This document shows, piece by piece, positions 1 through 37,892 of a DNA stretch of 64,000 nucleotides. Each line of letters starts with the position of its first letter. Within the stretch, counting starts at the first letter, position 1. Source of the stretch: a virus (Duplodnaviria > Heunggongvirae > Uroviricota > Caudoviricetes); IMG/VR virus record IMGVR_UViG_3300033068_001142, positions 48,262 to 112,261 of that record, one strand, 5' to 3'. The notes below the pieces were generated by a model. The model did no database searches. It was not told the DNA's origin and saw only the letters and a program-made list of their open reading frames with translations. Made by a program: the position numbers and the translations under genes.

Positions 1-1851
1 ATCAATTTCTTCTAAGGAGGCGTTAGGAGGAATAGATATCATGGTTGCCCAATCATAACCAATATCAGAAACTGCTTGGTTTTGAGTTACTTGACCTTCC
101 ACAAAAGGTTGTTCCATTATAGGTACTATCATATTATTAACCCACTCTATGTAAGGGGCTTCATCTGTAATTTCAATATATATTGAGTCATAGATTGTAG
201 AGATGATTTTAATATGGTCTTGCAACTTCCATTCGTCTATATGATGATGTAACTCATTGATTGTAAGTAACGTTAGAATAGACCAGAACTGAGAGCAGCT
301 GTTAGTGATTGTTCTAATGTCTTTTGAGGGGTTTGAGGACTTAATATAACAACCCAAACCTATATGAAGCTTTTTATCAGCGATGACAGTAGGCATAACA
401 TAAGACTCTCTAAACCTAGTTACAGAAGGGTATAGTTCATTATGATATCGATTAAATATGGTCTCAGCTTCTTCTAACGTACATTTGATTGAAGAAGCTA
501 CTTTGGCAGGATATGCCCCATACTGAAGTCCAAACGATGGGCCTTTACCTTTCTGTCTAATGGCTTTTAGTTCAGGAGTTTCTTCAAGTTTAGATGCATA
601 TAACTTAGCATCTGTTGATAGGTCTCCTGTAAGTTCAATATACTTGCTGATCTCCTCTCTAAAGTAGTATAAGCTATTAACACAATGCCCGTCTAGGTCG
701 TCTTCATATAACTTAATTAAAGTTTGCTCTTTTGCTAGATTTGCGATCACTCTGTTCTCTAAGGCAGAATAATCTATAGCTAGTATTATCTTACCTTCGG
801 GAGCTTTGAAGCATTTTTTTATTGGTTTTGCAAATTTAGACCCAGTAGAAGGCATATTAAGAAGATTGGGACCAGAACTGGTAAGTCTAAAGGTTTTTGT
901 TCCAAATAATTTTAAATTACCGTAAAGTCTGTCGTTTATAGTATATAGGTAAAAGGCATTAATAAAATTATTTTTGATAATAGACCCTGTTGAATAGTCA
1001 ATTAAGGACTGAAATAAGGAGAGTTCATCATCGGATTTAGCTAAATCTTTGAGAGCTTCTATGTTGTCTCTGTCCCAACTGTACTTGTTTTTGGGTTCAA
1101 TTGGTTCAGGTTTTCCATATTTTATATGAGCGTTTAATGCTCGTTCGTACTTTATGTAGGCATCGGTTAGCTTTTCAGACTCGTACCCAAGCAGGTCTGT
1201 TAGTAGTTCGTGCTTTTGGTCAGGACTTGCTGGATTGAATTGAGGGTACTCAATTGAAGTTAGGTTGTTTATGTTGTCGTAAAATTTACGATTATGTATT
1301 TCAGCTTTGTGTGCTGCATACAGGTTCATGGCTTGAATTGCAAATGTGTTAGTAGGGCTGATGTTACCATTTAGCAGGAGAGAGAGTGCTAAGTGGTCTT
1401 GTGACGGCTTTTTGATTTCTTTTGCAGGCCATTTTGGTATTCCAGTTGGTAGTAACTCGTCTGGGGGTTTGATGTCTTTGTCTTTGATGTAGTGGTGCAT
1501 GAAGTAAGAGCGATGGTCAGGGTTTTTACAGTCGAACGGTTTGAGGAAGTGTTCTGGTGGTTTAATTTTTGCTTGTTGTTCATGCAAGTACGTCTTGGTT
1601 AAATGGTTGTAACGAATTGCTAGGTAGTCTTTAACTATCGGATTTGCAGCTAGGTCAGAGGCTACTTTAGCTAATGTTGTGTCTAGGTTTGCTTCTAGTT
1701 CTTGCACTTTTTGCATGTCAATTGGAAGACCGTTGTGCATTATGCGAACGGTATCTTTGATTAAGTGCTTAGCTACGGTTTCATAGAAGTAGCCGTCAGG
1801 AGGACTGACGGTGCTAGGTTCTGGTGCTGGTAAAAGTTGCCAAGGTCTCAT
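1..1851 (-). CDS. DNA polymerase family A (Pol I-like) polymerase domain; partial, C-terminus lies beyond position 1
   Basis: Absent from the ORF track because it runs off the window. Manual minus-strand translation from ATG at 1851 (ATGA overlap with the upstream stop) is open to position 1. It contains LAIDYSALENRVIANL (motif A), RQKGKGPSFGLQYGAYP (motif B, RxxxKxxxFGxxYG) and IYDSIYIEI (motif C). There is no N-terminal 3'-5' exonuclease domain. Confidence 0.8.
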   Translation of the reverse strand, partial: MRPWQLLPAPEPSTVSPPDGYFYETVAKHLIKDTVRIMHNGLPIDMQKVQELEANLDTTLAKVASDLAANPIVKDYLAIRYNHLTKTYLHEQQAKIKPPEHFLKPFDCKNPDHRSYFMHHYIKDKDIKPPDELLPTGIPKWPAKEIKKPSQDHLALSLLLNGNISPTNTFAIQAMNLYAAHKAEIHNRKFYDNINNLTSIEYPQFNPASPDQKHELLTDLLGYESEKLTDAYIKYERALNAHIKYGKPEPIEPKNKYSWDRDNIEALKDLAKSDDELSLFQSLIDYSTGSIIKNNFINAFYLYTINDRLYGNLKLFGTKTFRLTSSGPNLLNMPSTGSKFAKPIKKCFKAPEGKIILAIDYSALENRVIANLAKEQTLIKLYEDDLDGHCVNSLYYFREEISKYIELTGDLSTDAKLYASKLEETPELKAIRQKGKGPSFGLQYGAYPAKVASSIKCTLEEAETIFNRYHNELYPSVTRFRESYVMPTVIADKKLHIGLGCYIKSSNPSKDIRTITNSCSQFWSILTLLTINELHHHIDEWKLQDHIKIISTIYDSIYIEITDEAPYIEWVNNMIVPIMEQPFVEGQVTQNQAVSDIGYDWATMISIPPNASLEEID

Positions 1852-2054
1852 GGCAGTTTCTTTGGTTTTAAGATGTGGTATTCGTTTAAAAGAGAAAGTG
1901 ATATGGCATGAGTTGGTCTTGACTTTAACCATTCATAGCGGTTAGAAATGTCATTAATAGCTTTGTGGAAGAAGACTTGTTTATTAGGGAGTAACTCGAA
2001 AAGAAGAGTAATACCAGTACGATCTTTTACCTCTCGATGATAGTAGAATTTCAT
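1848..2054 (-). CDS. Small protein of the LLKP-tail family (ends ...HILKPKKLP)
   Basis: 68-aa ORF whose stop overlaps the polymerase ATG. The C-terminal ILKPKK motif is shared with at least 14 other small ORFs in this window. Confidence 0.5.
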   Translation of the reverse strand: MKFYYHREVKDRTGITLLFELLPNKQVFFHKAINDISNRYEWLKSRPTHAISLSLLNEYHILKPKKLP

Positions 2055-2057
2055 TAG

Positions 2058-3146
2058 TTACTCCTTTGGGTTGCCATTGTGGTCGCAGTCTCTTAGCCCT
2101 ATTCCTACTGGTTTTAGTGGGATGCCTTTTTTAGATAAGACTTCGTACTCAATTTTGTAAAACTTGTCTCTGTAATGAGTCTCAAAGTTAGCTAAGATTG
2201 CTTTACGTTCTGAGTCTGTACCTTTTGGTTTGACTTTGAACTCTTGTTGGTCAGGTGTAATGCAAGTGAATACTGGGTGACCGTTTTTGTCGATGGAGTA
2301 GGATGTGATTTCGTATTCAGCGTCGTTAGTTTTTTTGTACTTAAGTACTTCTGATGAACGGTGGTTGAATAGGTATTTGGCGTCTAGGTTGTAAATTACA
2401 GTACCTTCGTAGGATCTTGCCATACAACGGTTGTAGTGGCTTTCAATGTCAGCCTCTGTATCACAAATTACTCCAGTTAGGAAGCAGACTTTGTAATATT
2501 CGTAGGTTGAGAAGATGGAAGACAGTTTCTTGTTACGTTCTTGGTAGGTATCAGCTAAGAACGGTGCTTCGAATATGCAGAACATTAGTTGGTTTGACAG
2601 TTCTTTTGGTTTTTTAACTGCAGAGATGATGTCTTCTAGTGGTGTGTTAGGTATGTAAAGTTCTCCGTTTAAGCAAGTTGTGTTCAGCTTTTTCATTAAG
2701 CTTTTGATCCCATCTTCCAAGTGCGGGATTTGGGGAAATGCGTCTCCACCTCTTGAGGTTAGTGTTAGTGTGTCGTCTTTTAGCCAGTAAGTACCATTTA
2801 CTCCATTAAGCTTTGGAGTGGAGATGCAAGGAAATTTTACTAAGTGTTTATTTTCTTGGTAGGGTTTTACTTTTTGAGGTAGTAAGGTTTCGGTGTCACA
2901 TTCGATTGAGAGGCTGTAACCAGATTTAAGTTTGGCATTCCACTTTGATTGGGCTTCAAGTTCTGCTTGTTGAGCTGGTGTGGTTTCATTGGCTTTGCCA
3001 ATGTTTTTACCGTAGCAAGTTGTATGGTAGGACTGTAGCTTTCCGTTTAGCTGTCCTTGAGTTACTATTATTATGTTGTCAGTTACTGTTACAGAGTATT
3101 GTTGGATTGCTCCTGTTTTAGTTTTTTTGTATAGGGTTGGTGTCAT
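2058..3146 (-). CDS. ATP-dependent nucleic-acid ligase (DNA-ligase-like nucleotidyltransferase)
   Basis: Covalent nucleotidyltransferase motifs: I KLNGVNG (KxDG with N at the D position), III LNGELYIP, IV EGTVIYN, V LKYKK. The likely start is the ATG at 3146, preceded by AGGAG. The track ORF extends to 3200 on upstream in-frame codons that overlap the exonuclease stop. Confidence 0.7.
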   Translation of the reverse strand: MTPTLYKKTKTGAIQQYSVTVTDNIIIVTQGQLNGKLQSYHTTCYGKNIGKANETTPAQQAELEAQSKWNAKLKSGYSLSIECDTETLLPQKVKPYQENKHLVKFPCISTPKLNGVNGTYWLKDDTLTLTSRGGDAFPQIPHLEDGIKSLMKKLNTTCLNGELYIPNTPLEDIISAVKKPKELSNQLMFCIFEAPFLADTYQERNKKLSSIFSTYEYYKVCFLTGVICDTEADIESHYNRCMARSYEGTVIYNLDAKYLFNHRSSEVLKYKKTNDAEYEITSYSIDKNGHPVFTCITPDQQEFKVKPKGTDSERKAILANFETHYRDKFYKIEYEVLSKKGIPLKPVGIGLRDCDHNGNPKE

Positions 3147-3148
3147 GG

Positions 3149-3430
3149 TTACTCCTGTATGTAGTTTTGTAGCTCGTTCCATAAGGCGAAGGTTGCACAT
3201 GCGTCAATCGCTGCGTAGTGTAGGACGTGCTCTTCGTACATTTGAGATTGGTTGAAGTCGTCAGCAGAAACTGCCCAAGCTCCGTACTTGTAGCCCATTA
3301 GGTGTTTAAGACCTACTAGTGATTTTTGGTTATCTACATCGTTTAGTATGGTTTTAGCTAAGATCTGAGAATCTTCGAAGTCTTTTGGGAACTTTTGAGT
3401 ATGGTAGTAGACATGTTTTAGGTCGAAACT
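3149..3430 (-). CDS. DnaQ-like 3'-5' exonuclease, exon 2
   Basis: Manual translation gives SFDLKHVYYHTQKF...VLHYAAIDACATFALWNELQNYIQE*. This continues the Exo II motif (HNA|SFD) across the splice and contains Exo III (H-x-A-x-x-D-A). It has no ATG, so it is not in the ORF track. Confidence 0.75.
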   Translation of the reverse strand, partial: SFDLKHVYYHTQKFPKDFEDSQILAKTILNDVDNQKSLVGLKHLMGYKYGAWAVSADDFNQSQMYEEHVLHYAAIDACATFALWNELQNYIQE

Positions 3431-4495
3431 CGTTTATATTCAACAGAAGTCGTTAATTTCTGCCGGTTCTCAGTAAGTATTTACATGAACTCCTGCATGT
3501 TTCCATGCAGACTAGACTATATCAACATCTCAAAAAGAGATGGAACCTGTTTCCTTCCACTTGGAAGTACGAGCATTTCAGCTCTAGTCGTTGGACATTT
3601 ACAGCATAATTGCTGATTTAGTAACAGATTGCCCTCGTCTTTACGTTAGGGGTTTCCTGTTTTAAGGTTCTTTAGACATGAAATCGCTTTCATGAATGCC
3701 TATACTTGATAAAAATTTAACAGTTGTTTTATTAGTTGGAAATACTATTTCAGAATCGGATAGTAAGTTATTATTAGAATGTGGCCAATTCATTAATTTT
3801 ACAAAAGAGTCGTAAGCCTTTGCTGCTTCTATTGCTGATTTAAATGATCCTATTCCGTAATGTTTATGCTCGTAATTTATATGAGCTACCCATAGTGTAT
3901 CATGTATTTTAATTATACCTTTATAACCGGTAGTATTAGTTTTTTTGATTGTACGTTGATTTACTATTTGTATAGAATAATTAACCCATCTACAGTTAGA
4001 TGGTTCATAGTTACCGTCGTTATCTTTACGGTCTATAGTAAGTCCCTCTTGATACCCGTTAGAGATAGCCCAATCATAAAAAGCGTCAAATGAGTTTATC
4101 CATTCTTCACACATAGTGATATTTTTACTAAGGTATGATACTGATCTAGAATCTGTACATTTTAACTTAGTTTTAGTATCTGCCCAAATTCTATAAAGTT
4201 TATGGTTTCTGTTTGGTTTTTTATTTGATGTTCCGTTACATCCTTTACAAAATAATTGATTTTGTGATTTAGTTGTAACTACTGCATCAAAGTGGGATAA
4301 ACAGTTTGTACATTCGAATGTTGCCATTCTTACTTTTTTGTAATAATTTTCCGTTGGTTTTTTCATTCCAAGATCTTTTATGACTTTCATTTTGAAAGTG
4401 TATTCTGTTAAAGGTTTTAGTGCTGCCATAATAATGCTCCTTATATGTTTTAATAAGTATAGCATAATTATGCCAAAATGTCAAGTATTTAGTTA
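3431..4495 (-). ncRNA. Group I intron (IA, T4-like core) interrupting the exonuclease gene; carries an HNH endonuclease ORF
   Basis: Exon 1 ends GCU, followed by an in-frame UAA. The 3' part carries Q-like AAAUCAGCAAUU, R GUCCAACGACUAGAG, S UGAUAUAGUCUAGUCUG and AAUUAACGACU 17 nt before the terminal G. Splicing restores the Exo II motif ...VWHNA|SFDLKH. Confidence 0.75.
3662..4465 (-). CDS. Intron-encoded HNH homing endonuclease
   Basis: 267 aa with an HNH_3-type motif ...DRKDNDGNYEPSNCRWVN... It lies entirely inside intron 1 on the same strand. Confidence 0.75.
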   Translation of the reverse strand: MLYLLKHIRSIIMAALKPLTEYTFKMKVIKDLGMKKPTENYYKKVRMATFECTNCLSHFDAVVTTKSQNQLFCKGCNGTSNKKPNRNHKLYRIWADTKTKLKCTDSRSVSYLSKNITMCEEWINSFDAFYDWAISNGYQEGLTIDRKDNDGNYEPSNCRWVNYSIQIVNQRTIKKTNTTGYKGIIKIHDTLWVAHINYEHKHYGIGSFKSAIEAAKAYDSFVKLMNWPHSNNNLLSDSEIVFPTNKTTVKFLSSIGIHESDFMSKEP

Positions 4496-4882
4496 AGCGT
4501 TGTGCCAGACTTGTTTTATTGGTGTTGTAACTAGCCAGTTTAAGGTGATGTCTCGCATACGTGTGTCTGTGAAAATGATTACGTATGCAGTTGTTTCTGA
4601 TGTTGCTATGGAGCAGTGTGTCATCCTAACGAGTGATGGATGTGAAATACCAGAAGATAGAATGGCTTGGTTTGTTTTATGGTAAGCTAATGAGTTGGGT
4701 GGTAGAGCTGCAAGTTTTAGTTTTAGTCGTTCTTTTTCCTCGTCAGTGTACTTGGATGCAGTTTCAAAGTCACAAGCGATTATTGGGTAGGTTTTTGCAA
4801 TGTCTTGTAGCGTTTGAAGGAGTAGTAATTGGTTAGTTATTACAGTGTAAGTTACTGTTGTTGAGGTAGTCAATGTTTCCAA
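4496..4882 (-). CDS. DnaQ-like 3'-5' exonuclease, exon 1
   Basis: Exo I motif IIACDFETAS. The exon ends ...IKQVWHNA, the first half of the Exo II H-N-A-x-F-D motif, and is immediately followed by a stop inside the intron. The start is an apparent TTG with an AAGGA RBS. Confidence 0.75.
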
Positions 4883-5108
4883 GTTCTGTCCTTAATTGTA
4901 TTTTTGGTTCAACGTAGCGGTATTCTAGTTGTACAGCGTTTAGTAATACTTTGTGAGCTCTTGTACAAGCGACATAGTAAAGATTTAGTTCAGTTTGTTC
5001 TTCCTTTGTTAGTTGGTCGTATGTGATGTTTTTAGAAGCCATAGAGATTTGTACCATTTTTACGGCATTGTTTAAGTCATCAGCAATGTAAACCTCGTCA
5101 TACTCAAG
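4833..5108 (-). CDS. SF1 (UvrD/Dda-like) DNA helicase, exon 2
   Basis: It begins LEYDEVYIADD... immediately after motif V and contains YVACTRAHKVL, the SF1 motif VI. The junction ...TAHSTKG|LEYDEVYI matches the UvrD pattern TLHSAKGLEF. Confidence 0.75.
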   Translation of the reverse strand, partial: LEYDEVYIADDLNNAVKMVQISMASKNITYDQLTKEEQTELNLYYVACTRAHKVLLNAVQLEYRYVEPKIQLRTELGNIDYLNNSNLHCNN

Positions 5109-5389
5109 CATTATGTTCCGTATAAGGCGTTAATTTATACGTGCAGCATTACCTGCAACTATACATTACTGTATAGATCAGACTATATCTTCATCCCAGT
5201 AGGATGCTCCCCGTTTCCACCCACTTGGGTGTACGTGCAAAAGCACTAGTCGTTGAACGTTCCTCGTTATGAGGCTTCGCTGCTGATTGTCCTAGGAGTA
5301 GGATGTCCCAGCAATTAGAGGAGTTTTGATACACATTACTGTGTAAAAGGGCCTATGTAGTTTTATTATGAGTCACTCAACTTAAATTA
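5109..5389 (-). ncRNA. ORF-less group I intron (281 nt) in the helicase gene
   Basis: Exon 1 ends GGU, followed by UAA. Core elements read on the minus strand: P UAAUUGCUGGGACA, Q CAAUCAGCAGCG, R GUUCAACGACUAGUG, S GAAGAUAUAGUCUGA, and AAUUAACGCCU 16 nt before the terminal G. Confidence 0.8.
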
Positions 5390-6625
5390 ACCCTTAGTTG
5401 AGTGAGCTGTTCCTAAATGGAAAGAGCTTGTTAGTCTTTCGTGTTTTTTTGCTTCTTCGTAACAACTAAGTACTCCAGTAACTCTGTATTTTAGAATTAG
5501 ACTGATTGCTGTTGATACTTGCTGGTCTTCTTTATAGAGGTCTTTTAAGTAGTTTAAGTGGTTTCTGTACTTTAAAATTAGTTCTCTATCTTCGTAGTAG
5601 TCGTTGATGTCTTGTTGAATGCTTTTGAATTCAACTGGCATGAAGCCTTTGTTTTTAGAAAGACAAAGTGCTTTCGGTAATGAGAAGATATCATCAGCTG
5701 AACGAGTTAAGGTGTACGGGACTTTTAGTTCGTTTAGTTCCATCATTTTAGAGATTAGTGTTGTGTTTGTTCTTGCAATGAAGGCTTGGGTTTTTGGTTT
5801 GTCTGGTGACTGTTCAGTTCCGTTGAATACCATTTTAGGATCTATGTAAGTTTTACAGTAGCTGTTGACTCTTTCTGCAATTTGAGGTGAAACTCTAAAT
5901 GACTTTGACATTGGGAATTCTACACCAGTTGATTTCATTACGTTGAAGCAGTTAATGGTGTGGTTAAAGCTGTAAATGTTTTGACGAGAATCTCCGACTA
6001 AGAGTTTCTTGGCAGAAGGGATTAGTTTAAAGATTTCTAGTGTTACTGGGTTGATGTCACCAGCTTCGTCAAGAGCAATGAAGTCAAATGGTTGGTAAGA
6101 GATGTGGTCGGTAGCTAAGAGTATATGGAAGTATTTTAGGTAAAATTCGTGAGTACATTCGATGTCACCACTTTCCATTTGATGGATATAGGATTCTAGT
6201 AGTAATAGTTCTTTTTCTGTTATGGGTACTTTTTCTTCTTTGCAGAAGTCTGAGAAATGTAAGTGTTTAGATAGAAAGTACTCTTTTAAGTAGTCTACGA
6301 GTTCACAACGTCTTTCGTATGGAATGTCTTGGTTGATGTTACGGTAATTGAATTTGCCGAGTGTTAAGTGGTTTTTTACTACCGTTGGTCTGTAAGCTAA
6401 TGAATGTACGGTACAGCAAGTTACTGTTTTGGGGAACTTGGATGCAGCTTCGGTTGCAATGCTTTTATTATAAGCTAAGTAAAGAGCGTTAGTAGGGTTA
6501 AGTGCTTTTGCTATTGATACTAAGAGCGCTGTTTTTCCTGCCCCTGCTACGGCATTTACTTTTACGTAGCCATCATTAGATTTTACATGATTTAGTATTT
6601 GGTGTTGTTCGTCTGTTAATTTCAA
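5390..6625 (-). CDS. SF1 (UvrD/Dda-like) DNA helicase, exon 1
   Basis: Walker A AVAGAGKTALL, motif Ia TVHS, motif II ALDEAGD, motif III LLVGDSRQ, motif V TAHSTKG at the extreme end of the ORF. Confidence 0.75.
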
Positions 6626-8255: not shown

Positions 8256-8537
8256 TCAGTTTAACGCCCTGGGTTTTAGGAGTTTAATGTTTGGTAATTG
8301 GGTTATTGTAAATCTTTTTCCAATAAGGAAATGGTTCCAAAATCCTTGTATGTGTTCAGCGTAATTATCCGGGGATTTAATTATGTATCCTTGTATTTCA
8401 TCACGATCAGGACGTGCAGGTTCACTGTGTGTAGGATCATATAAAAACGTGTAGTTGTCTAGTCTTAGTTGAAGACCTTGTTTAGCTAAGGTTAAGAATT
8501 CGTCTTTAGTAAAAGTTTTTCTTTGGTTTAGTTGCAT
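8256..8537 (-). CDS. LLKP-tail family small protein (N-domain: KDEFLTLAKQGL type)
   Basis: 93 aa, ends ...QLPNIKLLKPRALN. The N-terminus is paralogous to 8528..8815, 8806..9093 and 26582..26878. Confidence 0.5.
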   Translation of the reverse strand: MQLNQRKTFTKDEFLTLAKQGLQLRLDNYTFLYDPTHSEPARPDRDEIQGYIIKSPDNYAEHIQGFWNHFLIGKRFTITQLPNIKLLKPRALN

Positions 8538-8815
8538 TTACGTGTCCTTAAAAGTTTAAGTTTTGGTAGGGTTACAATAGTAAAGGTGTTAACACTGTCA
8601 AAGAAGTACCAACAAGAGTTAATTGGTACTTCAAGTTCAATGTCTAATAGTTGTATTGTTTGTAAGTATCCTTGGATTGATCCAGTCCTGCTGAAGTTTT
8701 TGTCAGAGTTTTGCTTGTAGTAGTACTTAGAACCTGTTCGTGAGACTACTAGTCCAGCTTTTGCTAGTAGTAGGAACTTTTGTTTTGATAGTGTAATTAC
8801 GTCTCCTACTTGCAT
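8528..8815 (-). CDS. LLKP-tail family small protein
   Basis: 95 aa, MQVGDVITLSKQKFLLLAKAGL..., ends ...LPKLKLLRTRKCN. Confidence 0.5.
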   Translation of the reverse strand: MQVGDVITLSKQKFLLLAKAGLVVSRTGSKYYYKQNSDKNFSRTGSIQGYLQTIQLLDIELEVPINSCWYFFDSVNTFTIVTLPKLKLLRTRKCN

Positions 8816-9093
8816 GTTTTTGCCTTTAGTAGGAAGATGTTTGCAGGTCTTACTACTACAAGTGTTTCGCTAGTAAGAATGCTCCAAAGCCCGTAAATGT
8901 GTTCTACTGGTTTTAGGTCAGATTCTCCGTAGCAGTAGTTCTGTACACCGCCGTAACTAGATTCTGCTTGGATGTGAAACGGTGCGTAGAAAAAGTAAGT
9001 ATCTTGGTCTTTAACTTTTACTGCTAGGCCTTGTTTGGCTAGTCTAATAAATTGCTCTTTTGTTAGTTTAAGCTCGGTTCCGACTGGGTACAT
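8806..9093 (-). CDS. LLKP-tail family small protein
   Basis: 95 aa, ...LKLTKEQFIRLAKQGL..., ends ...ANIFLLKAKTCK. Confidence 0.5.
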   Translation of the reverse strand: MYPVGTELKLTKEQFIRLAKQGLAVKVKDQDTYFFYAPFHIQAESSYGGVQNYCYGESDLKPVEHIYGLWSILTSETLVVVRPANIFLLKAKTCK

Positions 9094-9461
9094 TGCTTGC
9101 TCCTTAGTGGTTTTAAGTAAAGTGGTGTAACTACTATGTAGGTGTTGATATCGTCTAAGACTCTTAGGTCGTAGTTAGATAAGGCAGAAGTTTTGTCACT
9201 ATATGACCAAGAGTACTTCATACGTAGTCCTGGGATTGGTCCTGGGTACTTGTATTTAATAGCTTTTGGATTAAATGAGTATTGAATTGAATTTAACTGT
9301 AGTTTAGCACCTGCTTTTAGGTATTTTAGCATTAGTTCAAAGTTACAAGTTACTGTTGAATTTTGTTTATGTATTGACATGTCTAGCCTTTTGAAGTTGT
9401 GGTCTTTTAAGTTGTTTAACAATGAATGTGTTCTTTGGTCTAAGGAAGTAGTCCCAAACAC
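9063..9461 (-). CDS. LLKP-tail family small protein (divergent)
   Basis: 132 aa, ends ...TPLYLKPLRSKQCTQSEPSLN. It is part of a tandem array with overlapping start and stop codons. Confidence 0.4.
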   Translation of the reverse strand: MFGTTSLDQRTHSLLNNLKDHNFKRLDMSIHKQNSTVTCNFELMLKYLKAGAKLQLNSIQYSFNPKAIKYKYPGPIPGLRMKYSWSYSDKTSALSNYDLRVLDDINTYIVVTPLYLKPLRSKQCTQSEPSLN

Positions 9462-9684
9462 CGCTCATCACTTCAACTCTAGGTATATGTCTGTTAGTAT
9501 TGATGCTTACAATTACTTTATCTATATTGAAACCCTCTGCGTCTAAGTACGAGAATTTATCCTTGTAGTAGAATATAAGAGCACTAGAGTCAGGAATCAT
9601 TAGTATTAGTCCTTTTGGTGCTAAGGTTCTGAATACTTCTTCTGTAAGCTTTTGTACTGGGTATTGTTTTTCTACAGTGAACAT
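9367..9684 (-). CDS. LLKP-tail family small protein (divergent)
   Basis: 105 aa, ...LTEEVFRTLAPKGL..., ends ...IVKQLKRPQLQKARHVNT. Confidence 0.4.
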   Translation of the reverse strand: MFTVEKQYPVQKLTEEVFRTLAPKGLILMIPDSSALIFYYKDKFSYLDAEGFNIDKVIVSINTNRHIPRVEVMSGVWDYFLRPKNTFIVKQLKRPQLQKARHVNT

Positions 9685-11440: not shown

Positions 11441-11632
11441 TTAAGCTTCTGGTGAGGGTTCTTCAAGGGGTTTTTGTTTTTTACGTAGTTCCTTGAGGGC
11501 TGCTTCTAAGAAAGGTTTGTAGGCTTTGTCATTTCTTGAGTTTGCACATTTGTACTGGTGAGCTAGTTCTTCTACTGTTAGGTTAGGGAAGTTTTTGATA
11601 GCTTCTTTTATTTGTTCAGGTGTATGTGTCAT
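11441..11632 (-). CDS. Hypothetical small protein
   Basis: 63 aa. Its start overlaps the stop of 11629..12120 (ATGA). Confidence 0.35.
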   Translation of the reverse strand: MTHTPEQIKEAIKNFPNLTVEELAHQYKCANSRNDKAYKPFLEAALKELRKKQKPLEEPSPEA

Positions 11633-12120
11633 GAGTAGTCCTTTACGATTGTGTCGAATACTTTCTTGTTTGGGTGATAACGTGGGTGTGCATCGATTTC
11701 GGAGGTAAAGCTTGTTTGATAGTTGTATTTAGCATCTTCACCAATACCGAAATACTTGATACATTCAATGGCCTTACCAACTCCAGCTGAGCGAGAAACT
11801 CCAGCTCGACATTGAACTAAGAAACGAGAAGTTAAGTTGCCTAAGATGAACTGTTGGAGTTGCTTGCCTTGCTCGTCGGTGATTGGTAAGTAGTTGCCGA
11901 TTTGTTCCTCGATATCCCAGAATTTAAGTTTGATACAAGATTTAAACCTACCAGCGTCAAGGTCTGATATAGCCTCGTCTTGGTAATGCTCGAATAAAGG
12001 CTCAGAGATGCTGATTAAAACTAAGTTAGATGGATCGAATGTTGGGTCAGATAAGAGCTGTCGCATTTCATGACGGCCAATAATAGCTTCGATTGTGGAA
12101 GTAGAGACAGAGTTTACCAT
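11629..12120 (-). CDS. Cys-based (CX5R) protein/polynucleotide phosphatase
   Basis: VQCRAGVSRSAG matches the HCxxGxxR(S/T) P-loop of protein-tyrosine/dual-specificity phosphatases. At 163 aa it is the size of a minimal DSP fold. Confidence 0.55.
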   Translation of the reverse strand: MVNSVSTSTIEAIIGRHEMRQLLSDPTFDPSNLVLISISEPLFEHYQDEAISDLDAGRFKSCIKLKFWDIEEQIGNYLPITDEQGKQLQQFILGNLTSRFLVQCRAGVSRSAGVGKAIECIKYFGIGEDAKYNYQTSFTSEIDAHPRYHPNKKVFDTIVKDYS

Positions 12121-13883
12121 CTTAGTACCTGATTGAGTACTGTGATTTGTAAACGGTCTTGTGGCATGCTGTATAACCAGTAATCGTTGATACGGTTGAT
12201 TAAGTCGATTACTTCTTGTTTTTCCATTTTTAGATCGAAGTAGGCGTATTTAGCTGCCCAAATTAGTTTACGTGAGCCTTCGCCGTCAGCTGCGTTGAAT
12301 GCTGGTGCAAATGTTACTGATTCATTAGCTATTAGTGATTTACGTTGAGCGTCTGAAAGAGTTTTGGCAACAGTTGAGGGTGCGTTTTCAGATGCTTCGT
12401 GGGCTTTCATTAAGTAGTCACGAACAGAAATTGGCGTTGCGTCTGTAACTGAAAGAACAGTACGAGTTGAGTCTTTTTCCCAGTACGAGAAGAAGATTTG
12501 TGATTGCGGTAAATGGTCAACTGTTAGTGATAAGTCTTCAGCAATTGATGTGTAGAAGTTTCTCCAAACAATTGAGTCAACGTCAACTACTGAGTCTAGT
12601 TCTAGTAGTACTCTGAATTTGTATTCGTTGTGTTGGTCAGAACCAAGTGCAATGTGGTGATTGATGTCTGACAGTAGGAGGTGAGCTTCGCTAGCCGTAA
12701 TTAGAGATGAGTCTATGTCTAATACTAGCCATTTTGCACCACTAATGATGTTGGCTTTTCCACGTACTCCGTCCTTGAATTGGAATGGTGAGTATGCAAA
12801 GTTGCCTTGTAGCAGTTGAGCTAAGTCAGCAAATGTTGCAGGTTCACATTCAAATCCATAGGTTGCTGAAGCTGCTACTGACGATTTTAAGTCACGTATT
12901 GTGTCGTAACTAGCGTTTTGTTTAATAGCTTCTAGTAGTTTGTCGTTGTTGATTGGTTTAACTGATACTAAGAGAGAGTCTGTTCGTTGGATACGCTTGT
13001 AGTGGATGTAGACTCCGTCTTCAGAAACAGTGTAGATTCCAAGTTTGTCATAGACAGCAGCTGGTGCTATTAGTTCTTTTAAGCGGGTTTTAGCGTTGGC
13101 TGTTGAAGCTATGAAACCTTTTTTCTTTAAGTTGTGAATGTCAATTGAGGTTTCACCAGTAATGGCATCAACTGAAGATTGCATGTAGTCAGCAAATCGT
13201 TCGTATGGAAGTTTATTTAGTTCCAGTTCGAAAAGTTCCATGTCATGTGATAGAGACTCACAGAATCTAATAGCTTCAATGTAGTGGTCAAGTGTGATTG
13301 AGTCAGCACAGTAGATTAATGCTAGAGCACCTGCTAGTTTGAGGGCTTTCCATTGAAGATGTTTACGAACCAATGCTGAAACAGATGAGGGAGCTAGTGA
13401 TGTTGTTGCTAGTTCTTTGTTGTAACGTTTGTAGACTTTGAATGCGTCGACTACGGCTTTGTCAATTGGTAAAAGTTCACCGGCTTTTGTTAGCTGGTAT
13501 TGAGTGATTTGCTTCATTTCACTAGAGATTGATTCTTGTAGTGAAATAGCGTGGTAGTCAGCACCGTTGTCTGAAGCTAAGAAGGCTTCGATGGAGTCGA
13601 ATTCAGGTTCGCTAAGTGATTCAGGTATGTAGCAAAAGAATGAACGTCTAGCTAGTTTTGACATGAAGGCTAGTTGGAATTTCTTTTTAACAGTCTCGTC
13701 ATACAGGATGTAAGCTGGTGAGCCTACGAAGAATGCTGATACTGGTTGACCTTTGATTTCAGAAGAACGAGAATCTACTCCTTTGGTGTACTTAACCTCT
13801 TTTTCACCGACGTCGTAAACTTCAGCTAAGGTTTTGATGTTTTCAAGAATGTCACCGTTAGTTGCAAGTTCGTCTCCAAGTTC
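12114..13883 (-). CDS. Putative DNA replication protein (primase/primase-polymerase-like), exon 2
   Basis: About 590 aa continuing from exon 1. It contains ...GAKWLVLDIDSS... (a D-x-D motif of AEP/TOPRIM type) and a C-terminal helical region. The exact 3' splice site is inferred from the conserved AAUUAACGACU + 16 nt + G spacing and the reading frame (...LLYAG|ELGDEL...). Confidence 0.45.
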   Translation of the reverse strand, partial: ELGDELATNGDILENIKTLAEVYDVGEKEVKYTKGVDSRSSEIKGQPVSAFFVGSPAYILYDETVKKKFQLAFMSKLARRSFFCYIPESLSEPEFDSIEAFLASDNGADYHAISLQESISSEMKQITQYQLTKAGELLPIDKAVVDAFKVYKRYNKELATTSLAPSSVSALVRKHLQWKALKLAGALALIYCADSITLDHYIEAIRFCESLSHDMELFELELNKLPYERFADYMQSSVDAITGETSIDIHNLKKKGFIASTANAKTRLKELIAPAAVYDKLGIYTVSEDGVYIHYKRIQRTDSLLVSVKPINNDKLLEAIKQNASYDTIRDLKSSVAASATYGFECEPATFADLAQLLQGNFAYSPFQFKDGVRGKANIISGAKWLVLDIDSSLITASEAHLLLSDINHHIALGSDQHNEYKFRVLLELDSVVDVDSIVWRNFYTSIAEDLSLTVDHLPQSQIFFSYWEKDSTRTVLSVTDATPISVRDYLMKAHEASENAPSTVAKTLSDAQRKSLIANESVTFAPAFNAADGEGSRKLIWAAKYAYFDLKMEKQEVIDLINRINDYWLYSMPQDRLQITVLNQVLRW

Positions 13884-25659: not shown

Positions 25660-26592
25660 TTACTCTAATATGTAGGATATACTAGTAAAACCTTCTTCCA
25701 GTACTGGTATTACAAAGGATTTTGACATTTGGTGTAGAAGTTCTGGTTGTACAGTTTTATCTTGTCTTGTTTTGTTGCATTCTAGCACTTTTGAGTATTG
25801 TGGTAAGAATACAATGGCTTTGAATTGGGCATGGTTGAAACGAGACATCATTGACCTTCTTGATTTTAGTGATAGCATTGTCATGTCAATTACTAGGTCG
25901 GATTGGGTTTTAGCTAGTTTAGTGATTAAGTGGTCAAAGTCTCTGTTAAAAAGTTTTAGTGTTGTAGGATTACTGTGGACTAAGGTGTAAGCTTCGTTGT
26001 AGCTAAGGTTTGGGTACTTGTCTGTTAGTAGGTTGTCCCTAGAAATAATGTCTGTGTTTAGGGTTTTAGCGTAAGTTGATTTTCTAGTACATGGGAGACC
26101 AACTAGTAGAGTTACTGTATGTGTTGGGTTTGATGTAGGTGTTGTGAACTTACGAGGTTCGTAGTCTTTACGTGGGTCTTTGTCAGTGATTCTTCCGTAA
26201 GAGTCTGCTTTTCTGAACATTGACAAGTATGGAACTGTTAGTTGAGCTATGTTTACTCCGTGTAGGGAGATTACTCTTAGTATGTCGATTTTTTCTTGTT
26301 CTGTTAAGTCGAAGATTGGAAGAATGTCTGTTGCTAACATTGTTGATACTCCTTCGTGTGATTTGAAAGAGGTCCTACCGTCAATAATTTCAGCTGTGTA
26401 ACACTTTCCAATGTCGTGTAGTAAGGCTGAAATTAGCAGTACTTTGTTGTTAGGATGAAGTGCTAAGACATGTGAGTAAACCATGCAAGTATGTGTCCAA
26501 ACTGAGCCTTCTAGGTGGTAAGAAGAGTCGTGGTAAGTTGATTGCATAAGTTTAACAAGTTCTGGGTAGTGGTGCATGAATTTAGTTATCAT
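25660..26592 (-). CDS. HD-domain phosphohydrolase fused to a P-loop kinase-like domain
   Basis: N-terminal H...LLHDIGK (HD motif). C-terminal VTLLVGLPCTRKSTYAK (Walker A). The architecture resembles nucleotide/polynucleotide kinase-phosphatase enzymes. It may function in the NAD-salvage block. Confidence 0.45.
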   Translation of the reverse strand: MITKFMHHYPELVKLMQSTYHDSSYHLEGSVWTHTCMVYSHVLALHPNNKVLLISALLHDIGKCYTAEIIDGRTSFKSHEGVSTMLATDILPIFDLTEQEKIDILRVISLHGVNIAQLTVPYLSMFRKADSYGRITDKDPRKDYEPRKFTTPTSNPTHTVTLLVGLPCTRKSTYAKTLNTDIISRDNLLTDKYPNLSYNEAYTLVHSNPTTLKLFNRDFDHLITKLAKTQSDLVIDMTMLSLKSRRSMMSRFNHAQFKAIVFLPQYSKVLECNKTRQDKTVQPELLHQMSKSFVIPVLEEGFTSISYILE

Positions 26593-26878
26593 TGGTTGCC
26601 TTTCTAGTTTTAAGTAACTTTCCAGTTTTTGGTAGTTCTATTACTGTAAATGTTCCTGGGAATCTATACCAAAAACCCATGATTGGGGCTTGTGGTTCTG
26701 ATGTTGAATAGCCATATACGTAACCTGGAATTTTCTTAGGGTTTGAGGTTTCTGCAAATCTTTCTATTGATTTAGGGGAGTAGAAAAAATACAGATGGTT
26801 AGAAGAAACTACTAGCCCTTGCTTAGCTTTTACTAAGAATTCTTCTTTAGTTAGTGTGATCACATCACCTACTTTCAT
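26582..26878 (-). CDS. LLKP-tail family small protein
   Basis: 98 aa, MKVGDVITLTKEEFLVKAKQGL..., ends ...ELPKTGKLLKTRKATNDN. Confidence 0.5.
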   Translation of the reverse strand: MKVGDVITLTKEEFLVKAKQGLVVSSNHLYFFYSPKSIERFAETSNPKKIPGYVYGYSTSEPQAPIMGFWYRFPGTFTVIELPKTGKLLKTRKATNDN

Positions 26879-26898: not shown

Positions 26899-26975
26899 TG
26901 GAGCGCATAGAGGAATTCGAATCCCCATAGTCAAGCTTCGCGGGCTTGGTCATTGTCCAGTTATGATATATGCGC
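26899..26975 (-). tRNA. tRNA (77 nt with encoded CCA); anticodon loop CCGCGAA, apparent anticodon GCG (Arg) with C at position 33
   Basis: Manual cloverleaf on the minus strand. Acceptor GCGCATA/TATGCGC (7 bp), U8, D stem TCAT/ATGA with GG in the loop, anticodon stem CAAGC/GCTTG, 5-nt variable loop, T stem GGGGA/TCCTC, T loop TTCGAAT, discriminator T, CCA. Confidence 0.6.
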
Positions 26976-30506: not shown

Positions 30507-30542
30507 TTTACTCCTTTAAATTAAGATAAGTAAGGGAATCCC

Positions 30543-31184
30543 TTACTTTGCTGTACCAACATTGATGATTGGTTGAGCTGTTGTTTTAGCTATTTCAATT
30601 CTTGCTTGTCTTTCAGAAGCAATTGTTGTGTTTAATGTAGAAATTTGTTCGTTTAAGAATTCAATTTTTGCATCTTTAGCATCTAACTCTGCTTTCATTT
30701 TTGCAGTTTCTGCTGAGTTTGTTAATTCAAGCTTAGTAACTGCCATTGAATGTTCTTTTGTTAACTCAGTTCTAGCACTTGTTACTGCTTTTGATACTAT
30801 TGAATCAATTGATTGCTCAACTTCTTTTAACTTTGCTTCTAAGTTTGGAACTACGTCTGCTGCAACTACTATTGCACCTCTTGATTTTGCTAACTCGTTT
30901 AACGTTTTTTCTTCGTTTTCTTTTAACCTAAGTTTCAAGTCTACGCTTGCAGCTCTTTCTTTTTCTGCTATTGTAGTGTCGATTTCTTTCTTTTTATGGT
31001 CTAATTTTATATCTAAATTGACTAACTCGTTTGTTTTGATGTTTACTTGCTCTGTTAAACTTTCAACTTGCTCAGAGTAAATAGCTAATGTTTCTGCTAC
31101 TTTACTTAGTGAAAGGACAGCAGTTGTAATTGCTTTTGCTGATTTTTGTGATACATCTAAAATTATTGCTTTTTCTTGTGACAT
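30543..31184 (-). CDS. Hypothetical coiled-coil protein
   Basis: 213 aa, Ala/Glu/Lys-rich heptads. Confidence 0.35.
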   Translation of the reverse strand: MSQEKAIILDVSQKSAKAITTAVLSLSKVAETLAIYSEQVESLTEQVNIKTNELVNLDIKLDHKKKEIDTTIAEKERAASVDLKLRLKENEEKTLNELAKSRGAIVVAADVVPNLEAKLKEVEQSIDSIVSKAVTSARTELTKEHSMAVTKLELTNSAETAKMKAELDAKDAKIEFLNEQISTLNTTIASERQARIEIAKTTAQPIINVGTAK

Positions 31185-31247: not shown

Positions 31248-31559
31248 CTAGTTGTCTTCTTGAGGTAATCTTTCAACTATTATTAAGGCAATTCCATAAA
31301 GTGCTGCTGTAATAAAATGACTGCTAAGTATAAATACGAATAGTAATGTTATTTTTAGCAGTTTGTTAAGTAATGATTGTGGTTTTCTTGGTTTTAGCAG
31401 TGATGCGTTTCCAGTAATGTATAGTATTGTGAATGCTACTATGAAAATTACTGAAATAGCAGAGTAAAAGTAAACTAACCCCATTGATACGAATGGTATG
31501 TTAGCTATTACTAGTATTGATACTATTAGTAGTACTAGTGGTGGTAAGTATGTTTTCAT
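31248..31559 (-). CDS. Small integral membrane protein (possible partner of the SPFH protein)
   Basis: 103 aa with three hydrophobic helices. It is ATGA-coupled to the SPFH gene and contains an internal LLKPRKPQ. Confidence 0.4.
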   Translation of the reverse strand: MKTYLPPLVLLIVSILVIANIPFVSMGLVYFYSAISVIFIVAFTILYITGNASLLKPRKPQSLLNKLLKITLLFVFILSSHFITAALYGIALIIVERLPQEDN

Positions 31560-32522: not shown

Positions 32523-33104
32523 TTACGTAATTTTCCATATTTCTCCTTTTGGTTTGATTATAGTTATGTCTTTTTTAAAATAAGTAGCAATTGCTTCTAA
32601 TCCTTTTAATATGTAGTTTCTCTCATTATCTGGTACGTATAGTTTAAAGCTGTCGAAATATGCTGCTCCTCGAAACAATACTTTTATGTTTACGTCGTTA
32701 TCCTTAATTTGAAAATTAATACGTTGACTTAAGTATTGGTTATATTTTTTTAATCGGTTGAGGTTAGATATATAAATAGATTTAACTAAAGTATGTTCTG
32801 ATGAGGCTTTAGTTTGTGGTACAACATGGTGGTTTATTGGGAAATGATTGCCAATATTATCAGTATAGATTAGTATTCCGCCAGACCCTGGTAATTTTGT
32901 TGATGGGTCTGTTAAATTAAATGCTTTACGCAGTGCTTGATTAGCTAATCTTAGTTTATGTTTTTGATTTTCAATGTCCTCTAGTTGGTACACTTTTAGT
33001 AATGGGTTTTTAATGTTTTCATTAGCTATTAATGTATTGTAAAGCTTGTGTTGTTCTTTTATTAAACGGGTAGCTTTTAGTTTAGCTAGGTATTGAGTTA
33101 TCAT
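32523..33104 (-). CDS. Hypothetical protein
   Basis: 193-aa ORF. Confidence 0.35.
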   Translation of the reverse strand: MITQYLAKLKATRLIKEQHKLYNTLIANENIKNPLLKVYQLEDIENQKHKLRLANQALRKAFNLTDPSTKLPGSGGILIYTDNIGNHFPINHHVVPQTKASSEHTLVKSIYISNLNRLKKYNQYLSQRINFQIKDNDVNIKVLFRGAAYFDSFKLYVPDNERNYILKGLEAIATYFKKDITIIKPKGEIWKIT

Positions 33105-35155: not shown

Positions 35156-35341
35156 TTAAAAGTAGCGATTTCCATTTAGTTCTCCTGAAGGCATGTTGAT
35201 ATAGTAAATAATAATAGGATGAGTATCTCTAGTAGTTGGAGATTTTCCATTCTGTGTCCTTGTGATTAAGTTTGAAGTGGCAATGTAAATGCTAATGAAG
35301 ATTGATAAAGTAACTAGGATAGCTAAGTAAATTAGTTTCAT
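35156..35341 (-). CDS. Small membrane protein
   Basis: 61 aa with a single TM helix, ATGA-coupled to 35338..35925. Confidence 0.3.
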   Translation of the reverse strand: MKLIYLAILVTLSIFISIYIATSNLITRTQNGKSPTTRDTHPIIIYYINMPSGELNGNRYF

Positions 35342-35925
35342 TCTTGCAACCTTTTTAGTATTAAGTGTTTTAGTTTGATTGTGTAAGGTACTAGGTAGTT
35401 GTACTTTTGTTTTTCAATACCTTTGTACTTTTTGATTGCTTGTTTTTGGGTTTGTGTTTCTTTGTAGTAGTTGTAAATTTCAATACAAGCTGCTACTGAG
35501 TTAATTTCAATACCTTTTTCTAATAAGTAAGTTTCCCAAAATTCTGGTACTACTCCACAAATACCTTCAGCTTGAGAGTTGTGGTCAATGTTGTAGTTCC
35601 AAGAAGATTCTGTCCAAGCTAATGCAAGGCCTAAGGCTACTTCTTCGGTGGAATAGTCCTTTAGAGTTTCTTTAATGCCTGAAAGTTTTTGATAAAAGAG
35701 CATTTCGTTGTAAGTGTCTTCTAACAGGAATTCCATTTTGTTTAGTTGTAATGTGGTTTGTTTTTGTTCTTCAATAGCTTGTAGAGCTATGTGTTGAGTT
35801 TGCAAAGTTACATAAGTTAAACGATTAAGTTGTTTAGTGTGTTGATATGAGTCGTAAAAATACATAGCAAGCACTATTAGTAGGGTGTAAATTGAGCCTA
35901 CTGCTATGATGTCACTTCGTTTCAT
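35338..35925 (-). CDS. Putative lytic transglycosylase (SLT-like) with an N-terminal membrane anchor
   Basis: N-terminal TM helix. ...ALAWTESSWNYNIDHNSQAEGICGVVPEF... resembles the SLT E-S...G-LMQ core. Confidence 0.4.
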   Translation of the reverse strand: MKRSDIIAVGSIYTLLIVLAMYFYDSYQHTKQLNRLTYVTLQTQHIALQAIEEQKQTTLQLNKMEFLLEDTYNEMLFYQKLSGIKETLKDYSTEEVALGLALAWTESSWNYNIDHNSQAEGICGVVPEFWETYLLEKGIEINSVAACIEIYNYYKETQTQKQAIKKYKGIEKQKYNYLVPYTIKLKHLILKRLQE

Positions 35926-36112: not shown

Positions 36113-36122
36113 GTTTATTCCT

Positions 36123-36779: not shown

Positions 36780-37036
36780 TTTGGATTATCCTTATGATAG
36801 TTTGTTTGATTTTCTTAAGTAGTCAACTACTTCGTTTGATACTTGTAGAATTTTTTGAGTTTGTATATTTATTATTTTTATAAAATCTTGTGCATGATTA
36901 AATTCAAGAATTTCATACATTGTATAAATCCTTTTTGTATTTTGGTTTTCTTGGTGGGTACTTCTTTTTTGAAGGGATAGAAGATTCTCCCATGTTGATT
37001 TCTTTTCTATATGATTTTTCTATAGCTTTGTCTCTT

Positions 37037-37345
37037 TTAGTTTTTCCCATTTGAGTATTCCTTTGTTTTAAGTAATTTATATGTAATTTTAACTGGTCGG
37101 AAGGTTGAATAATTTGCTAGTGCATAATAACGCTCATAATAATCTATACTACTAAATGCAAGATGTGCATATTTATAGCCAACTATTGTTCTGTAAAGTA
37201 CAAAAGGGAATCCGTGATGACTTCCCCAATTACTAATGTCTTTTTTAACTAACTGGTTTAGTCGGTTTAACTGATGTTGAGAGCTTATTACTACTACTGA
37301 GTCAAATTCTAAAGTTGCCCATTGTTGCGGTGTGATTGTCTTCAT
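37037..37345 (-). CDS. LLKP-tail family small protein
   Basis: 102 aa, ends ...VKITYKLLKTKEYSNGKN. Confidence 0.45.
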   Translation of the reverse strand: MKTITPQQWATLEFDSVVVISSQHQLNRLNQLVKKDISNWGSHHGFPFVLYRTIVGYKYAHLAFSSIDYYERYYALANYSTFRPVKITYKLLKTKEYSNGKN

Positions 37346-37614
37346 TCTTGTTTCCTTGGTTTTAGTAATTTAGTATGAAATATGTCTTCATAGGCTACTT
37401 TAGTGCAGTTACCTATGTCCTGTTCTTCCCAGAAGTACATGAACAATATTGAACCACCCGCGTCATACAAGTAAGTTTTAGAAAGTCTGTGAGGTGGTAT
37501 AAATGTAGCATTAGACTCAACTCCTTCTGTATAGAGTACTACTTTTTTGTATTCTTCCACTGTCCAAGGCTTGCCACTTCGCTTGTAGAAAGCTAAGTTA
37601 CGTACTTTCTTCAT
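37342..37614 (-). CDS. LLKP-tail family small protein
   Basis: 90 aa, ends ...DIFHTKLLKPRKQE. Confidence 0.45.
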   Translation of the reverse strand: MKKVRNLAFYKRSGKPWTVEEYKKVVLYTEGVESNATFIPPHRLSKTYLYDAGGSILFMYFWEEQDIGNCTKVAYEDIFHTKLLKPRKQE

Positions 37615-37892
37615 TTTAACTCCTTTGGTTTTAGTGTTGTAGTTACTAGTGTGTATAAAGGTAAATGGTCATACAGAGCCATGTAGTATTTTATATTAGA
37701 ATAAATAATGGACTTTAAAATTGTGTCAAGGTATAGTACGTTTTCTGTCTTTACAAGGAGAATGGAATCTCCTGTGGCTAGTTTATATCCAATACGGTCA
37801 AGAGTTTTAACGGTATGTGGTGCCGCTAATACACAAACTAATGAGCTGTTAGTTTCTTTTAATTGAGCTAGTGTTAATGGTAATAATTCCAT
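37611..37892 (-). CDS. LLKP-tail family small protein
   Basis: 93 aa, ends ...LYTLVTTTLKPKELK. Confidence 0.45.
   Translation of the reverse strand: MELLPLTLAQLKETNSSLVCVLAAPHTVKTLDRIGYKLATGDSILLVKTENVLYLDTILKSIIYSNIKYYMALYDHLPLYTLVTTTLKPKELK

Follow-up and report, generated by a model that had tools for sequence, protein, structure and literature searches.

What could lead many small and otherwise unrelated proteins of one phage to end in the same short tail? The question is raised by a 64,000-nucleotide stretch of DNA (hereafter the window) from a phage of the Caudoviricetes (IMG/VR record IMGVR_UViG_3300033068_001142, positions 48,262 to 112,261), in which about a third of the small early open reading frames (ORFs) terminate in variants of the peptide LLKP[KR]. 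We suggest, with a probability of roughly 0.5, that this tail is a C-terminal docking tag specific to this phage lineage, and that it is dual-coded with the initiation region of the next gene. According to this proposal, the tail would be a clade-specific extension of at least nine unrelated groups of small accessory early proteins, and its codons would serve two purposes. The terminal basic residue(s) would supply the Shine-Dalgarno (SD) sequence of the next gene, the L-K codons overlapping a box typical of early initiation regions, a purpose that the data below demonstrate; the block made up of hydrophobic residue, LLK and small residue would, in part demonstrably, be under purifying selection as a peptide. 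The tag might dock all its bearers onto one common partner.

The source genome is apparently 205 kb long. The minus strand of the window carries, from 1 to 44.6 kb, ~79 early ORFs, many of them small, including replication, nucleotide and NAD-salvage genes and a T7-like single-subunit RNA polymerase (RNAP), while structural-looking (late) genes are found past 44.8 kb on the plus strand, 23 ORFs of which were used in our counts. A megablast search of 15 kb of the window against an annotated phage collection gave no match, and the RNAP (40948..43080, minus strand) shares only ~28% identity with the nearest annotated phage RNAPs, those of Alteromonas phages; the phage thus has no annotated close relative. 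The related sequences compared with the window are labeled L001-L032. PHROG and Pfam scans of the tail-bearing proteins matched only PHROGs of unknown function.

One tail on unrelated early proteins

The 15 ORFs that a preliminary description of this DNA had listed as tail-bearing were all found on the minus strand, with the endings it had described. Within the last 16 residues, the pattern [LI]LK[PT][KR] occurs nine times in the 79 minus-strand ORFs, whereas their 11,738 internal positions contain a single copy (odds ratio 84, p = 7e-9). The looser pattern L[KR][PTA][KRL] gave 14 C-terminal versus eight internal matches (p = 1e-9), and no match to the motif was found in the 23 plus-strand ORFs. 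Overall, 47 early ORFs are small (<=135 aa), and ~16-19 of them bear the tail. It is ~12-16 residues long and consists of the last beta-strand, a proline, one to three residues, the core [LI]-L-K-[PTAR]-[KR] and then 0-12 variable, mostly polar residues before the stop, the final one being glutamate in only three tails (KQE, KEE and LQE) and K, A, Q, N, G, P or C in the others.

The idea that the tail is a module shared by unrelated bodies, already advanced in the preliminary description, was confirmed by BLASTP of the tail-trimmed bodies and by hhalign. The former revealed three families and at least six singletons, that is, at least nine groups without detectable homology; the families are F1 (GDVITLTKEEF), F2 (Cys4) and F3 (WNTxMV). 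When F1 and F3 were compared with hhalign, the alignment was limited to 16 tail columns (V..LP..KLLK.RK). The WNTxMV body belongs to a small, widely distributed domain, of which 36 representatives were retrieved at E < 1e-3 and which large proteins often contain in several copies. Its homologues outside the clade end after W-x-W-x-x-E-M-x, without the tail, which is instead present on the representatives P0026 (…IPLKILKTR…) and P0030 (…IPIRILKVTL). Since the domain is widespread elsewhere in a tailless form, the tail must have been added to existing genes. The AlphaFold2 models of F1 (predicted local distance difference test score, pLDDT, 87.5) and F3 (68.2) show two different folds, both finishing at the last strand, beyond which the tail has no secondary structure (pLDDT ~47-70) and appears as a disordered extension.

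All the tails are encoded by the minus strand. In family F1, they are LLKPR at 8268..8282 (ORF 8256..8537), LLRTR at 8540..8554 (ORF 8528..8815), in which the AGG arginine codon serves the next gene as its SD, with the ATG 11 nt further on, LLKAK at 8818..8832 (ORF 8806..9093), in which AAG-G is the next SD, the degenerate QLKRP(QLQK) at 9400..9414 (ORF 9367..9684), and LLKTR at 26603..26617 (ORF 26582..26878), which the AlphaFold2 model places in a disordered extension past the last strand. The sixth member, F1-like, is ORF 9063..9461 (YLKPL(RSK), 9105..9119), the start of which is most likely the ATG at 9381, with the SD AAAAGG upstream. Family F2 comprises ORF 15627..15905, with LLKTL(RSK) at 15645..15659 encoded by CTTAAAACC in the +1 register, ORF 15907..16167, with LLKPK at 15913..15927, the orthologues of which exchange TTA and CTA at both leucine codons and show one K->R replacement, and ORF 16164..16418, with LQKPR at 16176..16190. 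Family F3 comprises ORF 17999..18301 (LLKPK, 18032..18046, four codons upstream of the SD) and ORF 18298..18600 (ILKPR, 18310..18324). Three singletons follow one another: ORF 37037..37345 (LLKTK, 37061..37075), ORF 37342..37614 (LLKPR, 37354..37368), the stop of which overlaps the start of the following gene as ATGA, and ORF 37611..37892 (TLKPK, 37623..37637). The list is completed by ORF 1848..2054 (HILKPKKLP-stop; ILKPK, 1860..1874) and by ORF 24933..25247 (TLLKPKGTN-stop; LLKPK, 24945..24959), a member that had not been listed before. Further, looser additions are ORFs 38337..38504 (ALLKKEE-stop, 38343..38357), 35338..35925 (195 aa; LILKRLQE-stop, 35347..35361) and 32523..33104 (IIKPKGE…). 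An internal copy, SLLKPRKPQS, was also observed at 31386..31400, in a loop (residues 54-61) of the small multi-pass membrane protein 31248..31559; no SD or start lies near it, its arginine is isoleucine in L003, and by eye it matches the tail of ORF 16164..16418 at ~19 of 22 nt.

Codons shared with the initiation region of the next gene

The terminal K/R codon of the tail is the SD sequence (AAGGA) of the next, tightly packed cistron. In 14 of the 16 tails, AGG or AAGGA lies within the motif and ahead of the next start, and in 14 of 16 the next ATG follows the lysine codon at a distance of 11-29 nt. The arginine codon is AGG in seven of nine cases, against a genome usage of 10% (p = 3e-6), and the lysine codon is AAG in four of seven, against 17%. 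The alternation of P and T, in turn, largely corresponds to the 7-mer TTAAAAC in two registers, TTA-AAA-CCN giving LKP and CTT-AAA-ACN giving LKT (the codons used by three of three LKT tails). An A/U-rich CTTAA/YTAAAAC box, located ~20 nt upstream of early starts, overlaps the L-K codons; CTTAA is the top enriched 5-mer at -36..-13 of these starts (19 vs. 5.1 expected, p = 4.5e-7), and the arrangement of CTTAA and SD was not found before any late gene. This early-gene-specific box may act as an enhancer or an operator. It is not required for initiation, since ~60 of the 79 early genes lack it.

The same arrangement occurs in non-coding DNA. An early initiation region with a CTTAA box and an SD, ATCTTAATTTAAAGGA, is found at 43903..43924 (minus strand), and four near-identical intergenic leaders of the form ATCTTAAT(T/A)TAAAGGA-N5-6-ATG precede the minus-strand starts at 43903, 38935, 30506 and 26878. 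One of them adjoins the 3' CCA end of a tRNA-Arg(GCG) gene (26899..26975) and another a terminator hairpin (30548..30528); as the sequences upstream are thus unrelated, these elements are leaders and not promoters. The consensus of the non-coding copies, CTTAATTTAAAGGA, has a different spacer, and its stop-free reading, LNLK, is found in no coding tail.

The preliminary description had concluded, from the synonymous variation of the motif codons, that selection acts on the peptide and not on an overlapping promoter, terminator or RNA site. Promoter and terminator can indeed be rejected: the DNA upstream of the non-coding boxes is heterogeneous, sigma-70-like sites are not enriched (56 vs. 65.7 expected), and the junction RNAs are less structured than their shuffles (z from -0.3 to +1.5). 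As regards an RNA site, the conclusion is wrong for the K/R position, which is the SD, and weak for L-K-(P/T), on which the CTTAA/YTAAAAC box is superimposed. The readings as a frameshift slippery site or as an AT-hook/SPKK element were discarded, as neither agrees with the sequence patterns.

Translational coupling through an SD embedded in the upstream ORF is well known, for instance in ATGA overlaps, as are A/U-rich enhancers such as the epsilon leader of T7 gene 10, TTAACTTTAAGAAGGAG. The tail resembles these systems, its K/R codon being the downstream SD and CTTAA…AAGGA occurring ~20 nt before early starts, including in non-coding DNA. However, under coupling the motif should decay where no start lies downstream, and it is instead retained at such startless sites. 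Coupling also fails to explain the conservation at operon ends, the extension to the proline and the strand, the better fit of a peptide model, and the wobble variation of the corresponding tail in a sister clade (see below).

The rival explanation that survives best goes one step further: the peptide would be a functionless by-product of the initiation region of the next gene, that is, of box and SD read through by the upstream ORF, the stop-free readings of box and SD being limited to L-K-(P/T)-(K/R). The box itself could be an S1/epsilon-type enhancer, a RegA-like repressor operator or a target of an early-message RNase. We consider this explanation rather unlikely but serious, giving it about half as much weight as the tag model. 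A series of observations weighs against the docking tag or speaks for this rival. The K/R codons are an SD written with the rare AGG and AAG, at a nearly constant distance from the ATG in 14 of 16 tails. The enrichment of CTTAA before early, and never late, starts extends to non-coding DNA, and ~11 of the 19 sites lie outside motif tails. YTAAAAC is found 13 times at 14-40 nt upstream of starts (2.7 expected), seven times in frame 0, four times in frame +1, once as a stop codon and once in intergenic DNA, before the start at 20683. The non-homologous neighbors 37342 and 37037 have, by eye, near-identical tail DNA with a 1-nt gap, after which their peptides diverge. The junction RNAs are unstructured, as expected of open initiation regions. 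Moreover, the residue following the lysine switches between T, P and A among orthologues, and the tail has a weak 3-nt periodicity and does not reach the extreme C-terminus, unlike the tail of the sister clade. Finally, the tails inside one family are paralogous, so that the independent observations are ~9 and not 16.

The same holds for the comparison of close orthologues (L002, L003, L021-23 and L027-31). Their tails are almost invariant as nucleotides, in particular upstream of a conserved start, and show six synonymous changes in 59 conserved-residue columns, mostly TTA<->CTA, against ~15-20% (estimated by eye) in the bodies, so that an additional nucleotide constraint is possible. This set is underpowered for the ratio of non-synonymous to synonymous substitution rates (dN/dS), dS being low overall and the tails overlapping a conserved start; hence, these counts neither prove nor exclude a constraint at the RNA level.

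Probable selection on the peptide and a second tail in a sister clade

What argues against the by-product explanation is that the phi-LLK-[PTA] block (phi being a hydrophobic residue) behaves, in part demonstrably and in part presumably, as a selected peptide, that is, a disordered short linear motif. In a leave-one-out likelihood analysis of the LLK[PT] DNA, an amino-acid matrix combined with the genome codon usage scored -156.8 bits versus -167.3 bits for a nucleotide matrix (-213.0 versus -233.5 bits when K/R was included), and a nucleotide matrix anchored on the A-run performed worse (-192.9 bits); in the control, the sister-clade PELFI tail described below, the values were -358.7 and -389.2 bits, respectively. 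Furthermore, the tail is retained where no initiation region follows. ORFs 1848..2054 and 8256..8537 stand at two operon ends and have no start behind them (for 82 nt in the latter case), the next element being a hairpin in both (fold z = -2.0 and -2.1, the second being GGCGTTA…TAACGCC). In L013-L016, an 84-aa ORF preceding the ATPase gene ends with LLKRK, with synonymous TTA/CTA and AGA/AGG differences, and no start follows it. In L032, the orthologue of ORF 24933..25247 keeps QTLLKPK even though everything 3' of the tail has been replaced, and in L015:5516-5863 the LKP tripeptide is encoded by CTA-AAG-CCG, which breaks the nucleotide box.

Orthologues differ non-synonymously at ~40% of the columns in the bodies versus one (K->R) in ~35 tail-core columns, and the segment LYPIKLLKPKT of ORF 17999..18301 shows no variation among orthologues of 73-98% identity. 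In the F1 paralogues the distance of the motif from the last strand is constant, and that from the ATG varies from 11 to 27 nt, where a start exists at all. The hydrophobic residue before L-K is conserved at the second codon position, and the similarity among tails spans ~40-48 nt, through the conserved proline and the last strand and beyond the initiation region. The by-product explanation also has to face the many early genes devoid of the box. The tail shows two features of short linear motifs, namely disorder outside the fold and conservation above the flanks on non-homologous proteins. Of the earlier claim of selection on the peptide, the part supported by the model fit and by the startless tails stands, and the part concerning the K/R position, dual-coded with the SD, does not.

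A second line of evidence comes from a sister clade (IMGVR_UViG_3300032257_000002; Ga0194136_1002691; L001/L004/L018/L026), which was identified by means of the conserved exonuclease and Sak4-like ATPase and the core genes of which are syntenic with, and 50-70% identical to, those of the window. In this clade, 44 of 70 distinct ORFs end exactly with [YFH]PE[LFYWV]x[ILV]-stop (the PELFI tail). The genomic slots occupied by LLKP-tailed ORFs in the window are occupied there by small, non-homologous PELFI-tailed ORFs, and profile searches with the F1 and F3 bodies retrieved no homologue from that clade. The codon information of the PELFI tail (CCN, 2.0/2.0/0.28 bits; GAR, 2/2/1.37; ATH, 2/2/0.46) is that of wobble-only variation with a clean 3-nt periodicity, so that selection on the peptide is unambiguous there; the wobble base is put to use just where it is required, the Pro-Glu pair being CCG-GAG, an SD, in seven of eight ATATGA overlaps. 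The two tails share their position, between the same core genes and just upstream of the next SD, whereas the PELFI tail is strictly C-terminal, has a clear 3-nt periodicity and is borne by a larger fraction of the ORFs. The PELFI tail shows the phenomenon more cleanly and on a larger scale and, being clearly peptide-selected in the same slots, speaks against a by-product.

The preliminary description had allowed that the motif might prove a generic ending, equally common in other phages. This is not so: with the pattern [LIVFMYT][LIQ][KR][PTAR][KRL] in the last 16 residues, we counted 19 of 78 ORFs in close relatives and seven of 33 in a clade with 75% ATPase identity, versus one of 70 in the PELFI clade and one of 87 in more distant relatives, which have no small-ORF arrays. 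Judging from these sequences, the two tails are mutually exclusive and clade-specific. A scan of IMG/VR for the DNA of the PELFI tail matched one contig and no other, and no relevant description of either tail was found in the searchable literature (motif strings, shared C-terminal motifs of phage early proteins). What we find most striking is that each of the two clades has a tail of its own, only one of the two being found in the window.

If the docking tag is real, the occurrence of an unrelated tag on non-homologous proteins in the sister clade makes a phage-encoded, co-evolving partner likelier than a conserved host hub. Candidate partners would be a turnover protease or its adaptor, limiting the early proteins in time, or a site on the capsid or scaffold, for packaging and co-injection. 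Against the docking tag, Pfam scans of 30 window proteins detected no PDZ, Clp or Tsp-like reader. A bolder version, which we hold possible but doubtful, is that clade-coded address labels (LLKP[KR] and PELFI-COOH) route dozens of rapidly evolving, non-homologous accessory early proteins to one phage-encoded reader; the purpose of the reader may be, e.g., timed destruction, or packaging and co-injection, and new genes may gain the label by landing in a cassette formed by tail and ribosome-binding site.

A comparison with known systems helps to define what the tail is not. The capsid targeting sequence (CTS) of phage T4 is an N-terminal tag on the internal proteins IPI, IPII and IPIII, which the prohead protease removes by cutting after LxE, and the IP locus is hyperplastic. 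Like the CTS, the window tail is a short tag common to unrelated, fast-evolving small proteins of a plastic locus; the CTS addresses its proteins to one phage-encoded partner, and the same is proposed for the window tail. It differs in being C-terminal, located on the early strand and dual-coded with the next ribosome-binding site, and it has no LxE site, which excludes it from the CTS class. Among bacteria, C-terminal tails are represented by the ssrA tag and the C-motifs of ClpX substrates, the XB peptide of SspB (LRVVK-COOH), the tip of SSB (DDDIPF-COOH) and the beta-clamp motif (QL[SD]LF). These too are short, disordered C-terminal peptides, through which one machine reads many proteins, but none matches in sequence, the window motif being basic-hydrophobic, off the extreme end and specific to a phage lineage. 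In particular, the 0-12 mostly polar residues that follow the motif do not fit a ClpX/ssrA-type degron, and no tail contains the glutamine or the LF pattern of a beta-clamp motif (QL[SD]LF or QLxLxL). The T4-type promoter early stem-loop (PeSL) elements are reportedly mobile intergenic cassettes of a promoter and a stem-loop that flank small early genes. Like them, the window tail is a short conserved boundary sequence at small early genes, a joint for gene gain and loss. Unlike them, it is coding, its junctions lack a hairpin (the z values given above) and sigma-70-like sites are not enriched, so that it does not belong to this class. Thus, the tail works like a short linear motif or targeting tag, yet it fails each named family in position, sequence or terminal chemistry.

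Gene gain and loss, and neighboring loci

The tail-bearing genes are clustered in arrays flanked by conserved core genes, and the set of genes changes from clade to clade. Two breakpoints could be located. In the window, ORF 16164..16418 consists of the body of L021:4800-5066 and of the last codons (KPQ-stop) of L021:5050-5310; one Cys4 gene of L021/L022 is missing, and the junction of this one-cassette deletion lies inside the repeated CAAAAACCAAGGAA. In L032:2409-2790, the LLKPK core of the orthologue of ORF 24933..25247 is joined to the leader of the amidoligase gene, the NAD-salvage block being deleted. As both breakpoints fall in or right after tail DNA, the unit formed by tail and initiation region is also a joint for gene gain and loss.

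This raises the possibility that the tail is simply a relic, inherited by common descent, that acts as a recombination joint, the cassettes having been duplicated together with their 3' junction and their bodies then replaced or diverged, with the junction surviving through gene conversion and the viability of joint-preserving indels. Boundary sequences that mediate modular shuffling are known in T4-type phages, and the relic would be akin to them. The Cys4 breakpoint, the L032 fusion of the tail core to another leader, and the clustered arrays with their clade-specific gene sets are in agreement with this idea, but the repeats share only ~14-20 nt and differ synonymously, which is too little for efficient homologous exchange. 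In addition, the WNTxMV domain, widespread without the tail, shows that the latter was added to existing genes, and the strong suppression of dN in the tails relative to the bodies still requires selection. We therefore consider a mere relic improbable.

Still less probable is that the tail is a recognition element for the neighboring peptide-ligase cluster, which would modify the tagged proteins. This cluster (17052..20683, minus strand) encodes a fusion of a GATase and a gamma-glutamyl cyclotransferase (GATase-GGACT, 17052..18011), an ATP-grasp/RimK-like protein (18549..19274) and an Amidoligase_2 protein (19271..20683). It is conserved in relatives, the tail genes 17999..18301 and 18298..18600 lie inside it, and RimK-type ligases are known to act on protein C-termini. 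However, the tail is set back from the extreme C-terminus, and its last residues vary and are mostly not glutamate; with just three tails ending in E, the Glu-rich end of a RimK-type substrate is not found. A literature search on the cluster retrieved nothing relevant. The fusion protein itself ends with AFDDDF-COOH, reminiscent of the C-terminal tip of SSB. As to a chance, generic low-complexity basic ending of A-rich phage genes, the A-rich coding strand and the commonness of Lys and Leu would favor it, but the odds ratio of 84 (p = 7e-9), the absence of the motif from late genes and the lineage census (one of 87 and one of 70 in related phages) refute it.

Other loci of the window deserve mention. 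The Rfam scan of the window retrieved two group I introns (RF00028) and no other match. The first (5159..5398, minus strand, 98 bits) splits a UvrD-like helicase gene (5387..6625 + 4833..5111) and the second (3493..3721, minus strand, 78 bits) an exonuclease-like gene (4493..4882 + 3149..3298); each of the two genes forms one ORF in L013/L015, and ORF 3662..4465 looks like an intron homing endonuclease. The primase-helicase gene is also split (15136..15633 + 12114..13895), with an endonuclease-like ORF on the opposite strand between its halves (14035..14832), and corresponds to one ORF of 750 aa in L001. The first gene of the early strand (44004..44576, minus strand) encodes an N-terminal hydrophobic segment and an HExxH motif (HEDRH), with weak, sub-threshold matches to the putative metallopeptidase families DUF6782 and DUF3920, and may, speculatively, be a candidate protease. 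ORF 11629..12120 (minus strand), conserved in L016, contains the CX5R signature VQCRAGVSRSAG, typical of Cys-based phosphatases, and has no Pfam match. In the ~1.8 kb past the last tailed ORF (1..1848), Rfam and tRNA searches gave no match, and the coding strand carries no plausible ORF.

A remaining question concerns what the tail might mean for the biology of these phages. Phages keep their main reservoir of host-takeover and anti-defence functions in small early proteins, and hardly any of these can be annotated. The shared tail would offer a sequence handle for the whole accessory repertoire of a phage group, and it would point to one common reader, which could be fished with a synthetic peptide. 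The dual coding also carries a warning, since part of an apparent peptide motif, namely its K/R residue and its alternation of P and T, turned out to be the ribosome-binding site of the neighboring gene. A cassette composed of tail and ribosome-binding site would explain how new genes are plugged into early operons and, if the address-label idea were true, the two clades would possess a previously undescribed, lineage-coded system of protein sorting or turnover in phages.

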